Shown here: positions 1,048 through 3,102 of the stretch, piece by piece
How the letters are laid out: the number at the start of each line of letters is the position of its first letter
Position numbering within the stretch: the first letter of the stretch is position 1
IMG/VR virus record: IMGVR_UViG_2526164617_000008
Strand: one strand, 5' to 3'
Source of the DNA: a virus
Taxonomy: Duplodnaviria; Heunggongvirae; Uroviricota; Caudoviricetes
DNA length: 58,890 nucleotides
The notes under the pieces: model-generated
Database searches by the model: none
What the model saw: the letters and a program-made list of their open reading frames with translations, nothing else
What the model was told of the DNA's origin: nothing
Position numbers and translations under genes: made by a program

Positions 1048-3102
1048 ATGTCAGACTCCAAGTGGAAAATGCTCTCCGCCATGCCCGGAGAGTTTTCAGT
1101 CAAGGTTGCCGGTGGCACGGTGGCATTTATTGAAAGCCCTTTCCGCCCTTCGGGTAATAAAGGGGGGATCACCTTCGCAGACTGCGTGATCCGCTTCAGC
1201 ACGAAAGAGCCATTATGGGTAATGCCGGTATCCGGTAATCCCAGTGCAGAAATCACCAGTTCAGGCGTGACTGGCATCATTCCAATCACATCTGACGTGG
1301 CCGGAACGCTCACGCCCTCCGACTGGAATGCACCGGATAACGCCGGGCCTTCCGGTAGCACGAATGGCAGCAGTTCAGAGCCGGAATATTACTTTGTTGT
1401 CATTCTCGCGGGTCAGTCAAATGGCATGGCCTACGGCGAGGGGCTGCCGTTACCGGATTCGTTTGACCGCCCGGACCCACGCATTAAGCAACTGGCACGC
1501 CGCAGTACGGTAACGCCCAACGGTACGTCGTGTACATACAACGACATCATTCCGGCAGACCACTGCCTGCATGATGTTCAGGATATGAGCGGGATAAACC
1601 ACCCGAAAGCTGATCTGGCAAAAGGCCAGTACGGGACTGTCGGTCAGGGGTTGCATATTGCCAAAAAACTGCTTCCCTATATCCCACAGAATGCCGGGAT
1701 ACTTCTGGTGCCCTGTTGTCGTGGCGGGTCAGCATTCACCACTGGAGCCGACGGCTCATTCAGTGAGGCCAGCGGTGCTTCCGCTGATTCTTCACGCTGG
1801 GGGGCCGGTAAACCTCTGTATCAGGACCTGGTAAGCCGCACCAAAGTCGCGCTGGCGAAAAACCCGAAAAACAAACTTCTGGCTGTGGTCTGGATGCAGG
1901 GAGAGGCAGACCTTGCCTCAGGAAGCCAGCAGCATAATAGTTTATTCACGGCCATGGTTCAGCAGTTCAGAACTGACCTGGCTCCGCTTGCTGCGCAGTG
2001 CGTGAGTGGAAATGCCACCACGGTGCCGTGGATTTGCGGTGATACCACGTATTACTGGAAAAACGCTGGCACCGATAAATATGAGGCAGTATACGGTGGC
2101 TACAAAGGCAAGGAAGCACAGAAAATTTTCTTTGTACCGTTCCTGACGGATGAGAATGGACAGAGCACGCCAACGAATGCTCCGGCGGAAGACCCGGATA
2201 TTGTGGCTGTCGGGTATTACGGTGCAGCATCCCGAACCCAGGGCAGTTTTGTTTCGACACAGCGTGACAGCCATTTCAGCTCATGGGCACGCAGGGGCGT
2301 CATTTCAGACCGTCTGGCCTCAGCTATTATGCTCCATGCAGGGCGCACGGCTGAACTGATGCGCGGGCAGACCGTGACACCACCGGATGAGAAGCCGTCA
2401 CCTGATACACCATCAAAACCGTCCACGCCACCCGCAGACACCACGACGATGAGTACGCTATTTGCTTACCGGGCATCTGAGTCTGAAGGACGGTTGACAC
2501 CACAGGGTTGGGCTGCCGGAGGTGGCAAGGCTCAAATCGTGGATGATGCCGGAGCCAGCGGGGGTAAGGCAATGAAACTGACCAAGGAAACAGGAAGAGC
2601 CCCCTGGTACCTTGAGCATGATGCTGGTAATGGTGCGGACCTGCTGGGTAAAGGTGGTCTTGTCAGTTGTCGTTTTAAACTCGATGGCGCGCTTACGGCT
2701 AATCAGTACGCACTGGCGCTGTACTGGCCGGTTTCTGCCCTGCCGCAAGGGGTTACTCTGGAAGGAAATGCCGGTCATAACCTGCTGGCATCGTTCTACG
2801 TACAGAGCGATGCCACAGACCTTAACGTGATGTATCACAAAGGAAACACGGCGCAGAACACGAAGCTGGGGTCATTCGGCGCATTTAATAACGAATGGCA
2901 TACGCTGGGCTTCCGTTTTGCCGGTAACAACAGTATTGAGGTGACGCCGGTCATTGATGGTAAGGACGGGACACCATTCATGCTGTCGCAGTCTCCGGTC
3001 GGCACGTTTACGGCAGACAAGTTGCGCGTGACCGATATCACTAAAAATGCGACTTACCCGGTACTGATTGACAGTATCGTGGTGGAAGTGAATAACGCGT
3101 AA
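1048..3102 (+). CDS. Prophage NanS-p-like SGNH/SASA-family esterase (putative sialate O-acetylesterase) with C-terminal carbohydrate-binding-like region
   Basis: 684 aa; GQSN catalytic-serine block (VVILAGQSNGMAYGEG), size and position typical of prophage NanS-p proteins. Confidence 0.6.
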   Translation: MSDSKWKMLSAMPGEFSVKVAGGTVAFIESPFRPSGNKGGITFADCVIRFSTKEPLWVMPVSGNPSAEITSSGVTGIIPITSDVAGTLTPSDWNAPDNAGPSGSTNGSSSEPEYYFVVILAGQSNGMAYGEGLPLPDSFDRPDPRIKQLARRSTVTPNGTSCTYNDIIPADHCLHDVQDMSGINHPKADLAKGQYGTVGQGLHIAKKLLPYIPQNAGILLVPCCRGGSAFTTGADGSFSEASGASADSSRWGAGKPLYQDLVSRTKVALAKNPKNKLLAVVWMQGEADLASGSQQHNSLFTAMVQQFRTDLAPLAAQCVSGNATTVPWICGDTTYYWKNAGTDKYEAVYGGYKGKEAQKIFFVPFLTDENGQSTPTNAPAEDPDIVAVGYYGAASRTQGSFVSTQRDSHFSSWARRGVISDRLASAIMLHAGRTAELMRGQTVTPPDEKPSPDTPSKPSTPPADTTTMSTLFAYRASESEGRLTPQGWAAGGGKAQIVDDAGASGGKAMKLTKETGRAPWYLEHDAGNGADLLGKGGLVSCRFKLDGALTANQYALALYWPVSALPQGVTLEGNAGHNLLASFYVQSDATDLNVMYHKGNTAQNTKLGSFGAFNNEWHTLGFRFAGNNSIEVTPVIDGKDGTPFMLSQSPVGTFTADKLRVTDITKNATYPVLIDSIVVEVNNA

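Follow-up and report, generated by a model that had tools for sequence, protein, structure and literature searches.

The stretch of viral DNA analysed here (Caudoviricetes; IMG/VR record IMGVR_UViG_2526164617_000008), whose whole length of 58,890 nucleotides is referred to as the window, carries in the right arm of a Mu-like prophage an open reading frame (ORF) of 684 amino acids which starts with ATG and occupies positions 1048..3102 of the plus strand. Its assignment to the NanS-p family of sialate O-acetylesterases is well supported by homology, its activity being predicted. As the best explanation of the locus we consider, at a probability of roughly 0.8, a prophage-encoded NanS-p-family sialate 9-O-acetylesterase which, in the right arm of Mu-like phages, belongs to a conserved three-gene module. 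The enzyme class as such is known; new is a Mu-like version whose N-terminus is specific to the phage backbone and is swapped at a sharp domain boundary.

The ORF clusters with hundreds of near-identical members, and the ratio of non-synonymous to synonymous substitution rates (dN/dS) amounts to 0.03-0.17 across every domain, from which we conclude that it is a real gene. An identical protein with the same start is found in RefSeq (WP_001284083.1, E. coli DLI.5a, “DUF6645 domain-containing protein”), where the protein goes by the names [quoted passage not shown]. A preliminary description, made from the sequence of the window, had reported a 684-residue protein with a GQSN motif resembling prophage sialate O-acetylesterases and located between an invertase and com/mom. 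All of this is borne out: GQSN corresponds to residues 122-125, the gene starts 85 bp after the end of a gin-type invertase gene, and about 1.3 kb separate its stop codon from com/mom.

Catalytic and lectin-like domains

Profile searches reveal a SASA domain (Pfam PF03629) at residues 117-312, whose score of 51.3 bits exceeds the cut-off of 24.8, and a DUF6645 domain at residues 533-650, whose 226.5 bits exceed a cut-off of 27 (E 7.4e-68). The alignment of E. coli NanS/YjhS (PDB 3PT5) with residues 110-428 is end to end, the E-value being 1.8e-117 and the identity 57%. The four blocks which make up the active site of NanS in 3PT5, namely GQSNA, RGGSAF, MQGEFD and R.SHFS (PMC10792757), are all present in the window protein, as GQSN (122-125), RGGSAF (225-230), MQGE (283-286) and RDSHFS (406-411), and the alignment designates Ser124 within GQSN and His409 within RDSHFS as catalytic residues. 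The preliminary description had made the assignment dependent on an SGNH catalytic triad. Since the aspartate of block V is natively absent from NanS (PMC9487903; PMC10792757), a triad is ill-suited as a test and has to be read as a test for serine and histidine, which the window protein passes.

[quoted passage not shown] The aromatic residues proposed to form the sugar site of vb_24B_21 from phage phi24B, Y510, Y515, Y540 and F611 (PMC10462455), map to Y554, Y559, Y584 and F654 of the window protein, all four being conserved. Over residues 94-683 the protein is 65% identical to L0105 (z1466) of phage 933W, for which esterase activity on Neu5,9Ac2 as well as a growth benefit have been reported; such NanS-p enzymes reportedly deacetylate Neu5,9Ac2 and mucin glycans and allow growth on Neu5,9Ac2 (PMC8065619). 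Still closer are NanS-p proteins of the DUF1737 type with 87-91% identity over residues ~95-684. Neither a signal peptide nor a transmembrane segment is discernible in the window protein (maximum Kyte-Doolittle value over 19 residues 1.03; the N-terminus is not hydrophobic), and a PADLOC search of the esterase and three neighbouring genes returned nothing credible. In two close lambdoid-type relatives, P0030 and P0034 (DUF1737 type, 647-650 residues), the conserved SGNH block II reads RGSSAF in place of RGGSAF. An AlphaFold2 model of the full-length protein, based on a 16-sequence alignment, was discarded as its mean predicted local distance difference test (pLDDT) score was 36.6.

An N-terminal module in place of DUF1737

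The preliminary description had called for a search for SASA/DUF303 and DUF1737 domains. While SASA was found, DUF1737 (PF08410) is absent: it matches neither the full-length protein (E<=0.01) nor residues 1-95 alone (E<=1), whereas the control loci L041 and L042 do score for DUF1737 in the profile search. The N-terminal 81 residues instead constitute a small all-beta domain, hereafter the N-module, which is connected to the catalytic domain by a disordered linker (linker 1). Linker 1 shows the lowest amino acid identity between lineages (39%). An AlphaFold2 prediction of the N-module, based on a shallow alignment of four sequences, contains six beta strands over residues 7-79 with pLDDT values of 76-88 for residues 10-70; matches of the predicted fold are generic and uninformative.

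Residues 1-95 lack any Pfam match at E<=1. When 1.84 billion representatives were searched exhaustively with HMMER, only fragments of the same protein and one relative from Salmonella with 30% identity were retrieved; a further candidate, P0127 (E 9e-4), was judged spurious owing to its low-complexity sequence. A word-indexed search with the N-module gave only near-identical fragments, two scans of GTDB species representatives gave nothing, and in phage records tblastn detected nothing beyond the two Mu-like inserts. Within the Mu-like regions compared, matches to a putative paralog did not exceed chance level, and similarity to N-termini of tail fibres or to other ORFs of these regions was not found. 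The N-module was thus seen only in Mu-like prophages, comprising those of E. coli/Shigella and Salmonella as well as IMG/VR contigs. The N-module from Salmonella matches the protein family phrog_4772 over nearly its full length (E 1e-5), and the STEC-Mu N-module, from Mu-like phages of E. coli strains that produce Shiga toxin (STEC), matches it at an E-value of 0.0045; the N-module of the window does not reach an E-value of 0.01 against this family.

In unsaturated comparisons, dN/dS of the N-module ranges from 0.03 to 0.17 and hence indicates purifying selection equal in strength to that which acts on the catalytic domain. This argues for a functional domain rather than a drifting leader. In locus L045 (1255-2556) an N-module-like ORF of 81 residues ends at a stop codon while the SASA core resumes in another frame, which represents either a pseudogene with a frameshift or an N-module that is naturally split off and stands alone.

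Exchange of the esterase body between phage types

Comparison of the window with the lambdoid nanS-p gene of E. coli DEF2 (L041) reveals a shared block (see Table 1) which extends from the codon for residue 111, at the boundary between linker 1 and the SASA domain, to 24 nt beyond the stop codon. Upstream of nt 1378 there is no similarity to the DEF2 gene, which resides in a lambdoid late region in the order Q, tRNAs, esterase, DUF1378, DUF826, holin, lysozyme, Rz and terminase. To the other lineage of E. coli Mu-like prophages the same block shows only ~69% identity. Conversely, in locus L021 (type 1) the N-module is 99% identical although the body is only 86-90% identical, and the carbohydrate-binding, lectin-like domain occurs in at least three types among the E. 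coli Mu-like loci (40-100% identity). The N-module was not found in lambdoid genes. As the body is 91.6% identical to that of a lambdoid gene while the N-terminus shows no similarity, the body recombines between phage types whereas the N-terminus stays with the backbone. These comparisons show that lambdoid and Mu-like phages have exchanged the catalytic and lectin-like body by recombination, the breakpoints coinciding with the domain boundary. The recent event is the replacement of the body and not the acquisition of the gene.

Esterase genes are also present in further phage types, which conform to this pattern. P2-like phages harbour genes of the DUF1737 type after their lysis genes, and the tail-fibre genes of two other myovirus-type tail clusters (L046, L047) are directly followed by esterases whose short N-termini differ again.

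A standing module of Mu-like prophages

In canonical phage Mu (NC_000929) gin and com are separated by 94 bp, compared to 3.47 kb in the window. All 34 IMG/VR loci encoding the N-module were compared together with loci L001-L004, which represent three complete E. coli genomes and one Mu-like insert in a Shiga toxin (Stx) phage. As far as the flanking sequence reaches, the gene order is the same in all 34 + 4 loci: gp44-48, tail fibre, tfa, (gin), esterase, DUF1378, DUF826, (variable slot), com, mom. This order also applies to a second lineage from E. coli, in which the identity of the esterase is 66% overall and 62% within the N-module. It is found in Mu-like phages which are inserted in Stx phages (LC727881, LC727895). 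In a more distant Mu-like phage (L044) the N-module is 39% identical and com is located downstream, and in a Salmonella Mu-like prophage, whose N-module is 30% identical, the esterase gene follows gin within a Mu-like tail cluster.

In a census of 5,426 complete E. coli genomes, type 1 of the N-module was found in 32 genomes (43 copies) and type 2 in 205 (246 copies), the latter including O157:H7 and O111:H8. The full com-mom right end of this lineage is present in 226 of the 5,426 genomes, which is close to the ~237 (32 + 205) with an N-module. The constant position across divergent lineages together with these counts makes the arrangement the usual gene order for Mu-like prophages resident in E. 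coli. Esterase, DUF1378 and DUF826 form a conserved three-gene accessory module of these prophages. The view of the preliminary description that the gene order is unusual for a Mu-like phage accordingly holds relative to phage Mu itself but not to the resident Mu-like prophages of E. coli, and its notion of a gene inserted as cargo, in the sense of a sporadic event, should give way to that of a conserved accessory module whose body is replaced from lambdoid phages from time to time: the cassette takes this position in every Mu-like locus inspected with enough flanking sequence, canonical Mu alone lacking it.

Variants without gin (M1/M3, CI5 and several IMG/VR contigs) have kept the last ~67 nt of gin (window 896-962; L003 ~9005-9070; L004) as well as the whole cassette. 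Loss of gin through a deletion is the probable origin of such prophages, and it would leave the tail-fibre segment locked in one orientation. In the prophage of strain DLI.5a (L001 12390-12961), which is otherwise 100% identical, gin is frameshifted whereas it is intact in the window. This prophage has also lost most of its structural genes, the DUF2730 gene being joined directly to a truncated tail gene.

DUF1378 and DUF826 follow the esterase gene in all Mu-like loci of both E. coli lineages for which downstream sequence is available, and likewise in the lambdoid locus L041 (10886-11391). In Mu-like phages the two genes lie far from the lysis genes. Their position beside the esterase in unrelated backbones and at a distance from the lysis genes suggests a functional link with the esterase and not with lysis.

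Gene neighbourhood and limits of the prophage

Table 1. Features of the esterase gene and its surroundings (coordinates refer to the window).
Feature	Coordinates	Strand	Basis or remark
gin-type serine DNA invertase	390..962	+	190 aa; Pfam Resolvase 1.6e-51 and HTH_7; PHROG 125 “DNA invertase” 1.9e-94
NanS-p-family sialate O-acetylesterase (predicted), whole gene	1048..3102	+	SASA and DUF6645; matches to 3PT5 and 6YP6; 65% identity to 933W L0105
N-module, small all-beta domain, not DUF1737 (aa 1-81)	1048..1290	+	specific to Mu-like prophages
Linker 1, Gly/Ser/Pro-rich, disordered (aa 82-112)	1291..1383	+	pLDDT <50 for aa 82-111
Recombination block common to lambdoid nanS-p genes	1378..3126	+	91.6% nucleotide identity over 1,749 nt, E. 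coli DEF2 (L041)
NanS-type SGNH/SASA catalytic domain (aa 113-430)	1384..2337	+	aligned to 3PT5 residues 16-331
Linker 2, Pro/Thr/Ser-rich (aa 431-468)	2338..2451	+	read from sequence; poorly conserved between lineages
C-terminal lectin-like jelly-roll domain, DUF6645 (aa 469-684)	2452..3099	+	match to 6YP6; DUF6645
GC-rich hairpin just 3' of the esterase stop	3118..3150		9-bp inverted repeat GCCGCCGGT / ACCGGCGGC; read from sequence
DUF1378 small protein, one hydrophobic helix	3247..3429	+	Pfam DUF1378 1.2e-31
DUF826 small acidic protein (acidic C-terminus)	3465..3719	+	Pfam DUF826 6.4e-16
ORF of 86-97 aa, low GC (36-41%)	3887..4180	-	variable slot between DUF826 and com
com	4437..4637	+	Zn_ribbon_Com 1.3e-12; RefSeq coordinates
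mom	4591..5328	+	Pfam Mom 1.6e-77; RefSeq coordinates

The interval between gin and com accommodates four genes in the window and the esterase is hence not its sole occupant. The GC content of the esterase region, 54-58%, exceeds that of the flanking com-proximal DNA. The hairpin behind the esterase gene is flanked by A-runs on both sides; a terminator scan of the plus strand did not list it and it would read as terminator-like on the minus strand. The recombination block common to lambdoid genes has its end inside this hairpin, at nt 3126.

Between DUF826 and com lies a variable slot of low GC content (3720-4436) which in other lineages contains other ORFs, in L002 (6560-6754), for example, a Cys-rich (CxxC) ORF of 64 residues. 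The minus-strand ORF which occupies the slot in the window has no match in Pfam, NCBIfam, PHROGs or PADLOC. Upstream of com, GATC sites are located at 4304, 4373 and 4386. The latter two fall into a palindromic stretch (~4369-4393) 45-65 bp upstream of com, the one at 4304 lies ~130 bp upstream of it. This arrangement presumably resembles that of Mu, where the mom promoter region is under Dam/OxyR control.

In some Mu-like phages of STEC (L002 7095-8346, LC727895; also L029 and L034) com is followed by an ORF of 350 residues instead of mom, which judging from its sequence motifs looks like a C5-cytosine DNA methyltransferase. In strain H204 a gene annotated in RefSeq as “DNA cytosine methyltransferase” adjoins com. 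This suggests that in those phages translational control of the Com type is linked to another enzyme of DNA modification.

Similarity to other Mu-like prophages ends at 5456-5459, ~130 bp past mom, which places the right end of the prophage at ~5456. About 110 bp outside this end an ISEc20 element of the IS110 family (5569-7000) is found. The sequence beyond the prophage end further contains the chromosomal mlaA-yfdC-intS region with a tRNA-Arg(CCT) and an IntS-type integrase (11019-12412), followed by large ORFs at ~13000-48000 which presumably represent a lambdoid-type prophage. A second copy of nanS-p was not found in the window, including the presumed lambdoid prophage region.

Proposed mode of action and alternative explanations

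According to the mechanism we propose, Ser124 of the GQSN block would act as nucleophile and His409 of RDSHFS as base, together with the (H)QGE block and, as in NanS, without an aspartate in block V. The enzyme would remove O-acetyl groups, at position 9 and possibly others, from Neu5,9Ac2 and O-acetylated mucin sialoglycans, free or mucin-bound, and the Neu5Ac released in this way would enter the Nan catabolic pathway of E. coli. The lectin-like jelly-roll with its conserved aromatic platform would serve as carbohydrate-binding domain. Since there is no signal peptide, the enzyme would have to be set free by phage-mediated lysis, or be carried on the virion, to reach its substrate. In phi24B, DUF1737 forms a hexamer on the capsid hexons from which the esterase and lectin domains are tethered and later cleaved off (10.64898/2026.04.10.717836). 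By analogy, the N-module may dock the enzyme onto the Mu-type virion through the flexible linker and thereby take over the role which DUF1737 plays in phi24B. We put this forward tentatively, at somewhat less than even odds, based on the analogy to phi24B, the backbone-specific N-terminus, the purifying selection acting on it and the architecture of a folded module followed by a linker. A more comprehensive proposal, which we regard as conceivable though clearly short of an even chance, would have the N-module replace DUF1737 as a Mu-virion adaptor, so that Mu-like virions of E. coli, those from O157:H7 and other STEC among them, would bear a mucin-directed sialate O-acetylesterase on a tether, with NanS-p bodies as exchangeable payloads on backbone-specific adaptors and DUF1378 and DUF826 as obligate partners.

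Several observations weigh against the reading of the locus as a whole or against its docking component. Block V of the window protein is RDSH, compared to RSSH or RASH in published NanS and NanS-p enzymes (PMC10462455), and the activity and substrate attributed to the Mu-like copies are carried over from relatives with 57-90% identity. Scans of positions 300-5600 for promoters and terminators gave matches no commoner than in shuffled sequence; transcription of the esterase gene might run on from gin or start at a late promoter. As to docking, DUF1737 is present in lambdoid phages (L041), in the podovirus phi24B (preprint 10.64898/2026.04.10.717836) and in P2-like myoviruses. Hence, one anchor can serve capsids of several types, and a change of backbone becomes a weaker reason to expect a change of adaptor. 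Moreover, canonical Mu builds its virions without any esterase protein, and the predicted fold of the N-module gives no informative match.

Some of these points suit an explanation which dispenses with the virion, and which we consider a serious contender even if it falls a little short of even odds. The enzyme might simply accumulate in the cytoplasm and be released as a public good by that fraction of lysogens which undergoes lysis, with the N-module fulfilling a non-docking function in solubility, oligomerisation or regulation. The missing signal peptide and the generic fold match are consistent with this, Mu has no need of such a protein, and the growth benefit of NanS-p has been shown without reference to virions (PMC8065619). 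Yet the homologue from phi24B is a structural decoration protein attached via its N-terminal domain (10.64898/2026.04.10.717836), and a backbone-specific N-terminus in front of an exchanged body is a pattern typical of modular proteins attached to virions; the strong purifying selection on the N-module likewise weighs against a purely soluble enzyme. Attachment could also concern the tail. The N-module would then dock to the Mu-type baseplate or tail fibre and the enzyme, comparable to the O-antigen-deacetylating SGNH tailspikes, would strip O-acetyl groups from bacterial surface glycans, for instance O-acetylated capsules or O-antigens containing sialic acid, and thus aid adsorption. That the gene immediately follows the tail-fibre/tfa/(gin) cluster in Mu-like phages, as it does the tail-fibre genes of two further myovirus backbones, would agree with such a receptor-modifying esterase, as would the weak similarity of SASA domains to a minor tail protein of an Arthrobacter phage (29% identity) and to a PHROG labelled “tail protein” (E 1.2e-6), and receptor access by NanS-p has been raised as an open possibility in a review (PMC8065619). 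We nonetheless consider a tail-associated role unlikely and a weaker alternative than virion docking of the kind outlined above: the body is ~90% identical to lambdoid NanS-p, the phi24B protein is attached to the capsid, and the N-module resembles neither tail-fibre N-termini nor other ORFs of the Mu-like regions compared.

Two further explanations appear very improbable to us. A recent, one-off insertion of a lambdoid nanS-p gene as cargo (moron) into this particular Mu-like prophage would account for the short gin-com spacer of canonical Mu (94 bp), for the 91.6% identity of the body to the lambdoid gene and for a GC content above that of the com-proximal flank. It is contradicted by the same position of the gene in lineages with N-module identities of only 62%, 39% and 30%, among them a Mu-like prophage from Salmonella, by the absence of the N-module from lambdoid genes and by the agreement between ~237 genomes with the cassette and 226 with the com-mom right end. 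Just as improbable is that the protein is a SASA/CE6-type esterase acting on acetylxylan or another O-acetylated glycan. The SASA family does include putative acetylxylan esterases (PMC9487903), and the Pfam match covers only positions 4-157 of the 226 profile positions; however, 57% identity over the whole catalytic domain of NanS goes beyond family level and 65-90% identity connects the protein to NanS-p enzymes reported to be active on Neu5,9Ac2 and mucin.

Implications

Among the factors of Stx phages which are discussed in connection with fitness and virulence are the NanS-p esterases, by which enterohaemorrhagic E. coli (EHEC) feeds on O-acetylated sialic acids of mucin. The Mu-like prophages described here add a second, unrelated phage type with its own predicted version of the esterase, a transposable one found in many STEC and in ~4% of complete E. 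coli genomes. Counts of nanS-p alleles per strain as well as knock-out studies should therefore take the Mu-like copies into account. The sharp exchange of the N-terminus provides a natural experiment on the role of this part of the protein and leads to a testable hypothesis of virion display in transposable phages. If the N-module were indeed a virion adaptor, it would offer a handle for displaying proteins on Mu-like particles and the idea of phage adherence to mucus would extend to transposable phages. In addition, DUF1378 and DUF826 gain a testable functional context beside the esterase.

Comparison with known systems

Literature linking NanS-p or yjhS to Mu-like phages was not found in our search, a mention in Saile 2016 or Rangel 2016 being possible; one review which touches on Sp18, Mu-like phages and the esterase does not connect the esterase to Mu-like phages. 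The closest known systems are the NanS-p proteins of Stx and other lambdoid phages, such as L0105/z1466 of 933W and vb_24B_21/gp84 of phi24B. They share with the window protein the SASA and DUF6645 domains at 65-91% amino acid identity, the SGNH blocks, the aromatic residues of the carbohydrate-binding domain, the downstream genes for DUF1378 and DUF826 and the absence of a signal peptide. In contrast, they possess an N-terminal DUF1737, which binds to the capsid in phi24B, where the window protein has an unrelated all-beta module of ~80 residues, and their block V reads RSSH or RASH instead of RDSH. While their genes belong to lambdoid elements and lie between Q/stx and the holin gene, that of the window belongs to a transposable Mu-like myovirus and lies after tail fibre and gin and before com/mom. 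Thus, of the features that characterise NanS-p, the prophage-borne gene, the catalytic blocks and the lectin-like C-terminal domain are present in the window, while DUF1737 is absent and the gene does not occupy the lambdoid late-operon position after Q/stx and before holin S.

Chromosomal NanS (YjhS, 3PT5), at 57% identity, has the motifs GQSN, RGGSAF, MQGE.D and R.SHFS in common with the window protein, and both lack the aspartate of block V. It consists, however, of a single domain of ~330 residues encoded in the nanCMS operon, whereas the phage-borne protein additionally comprises the N-module, two linkers and the lectin-like domain. In the right arm of phage Mu, the gin-type invertase, the Com zinc ribbon and Mom follow each other in the same order and orientation as in the window; in Mu 94 bp lie between gin and com, while in the window 3.47 kb with four genes take the place of a contiguous (~100 bp) spacing. 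Among the relatives of the window some differ from Mu in lacking gin while possessing the cassette, and some in carrying an ORF resembling a C5-cytosine methyltransferase in place of mom. Finally, phrog_4772, which two divergent N-modules match while that of the window stays below significance, comprises stand-alone phage proteins of ~79 residues and of unknown function. In this it parallels DUF1737, which mostly occurs as a stand-alone small protein, too (10.64898/2026.04.10.717836).

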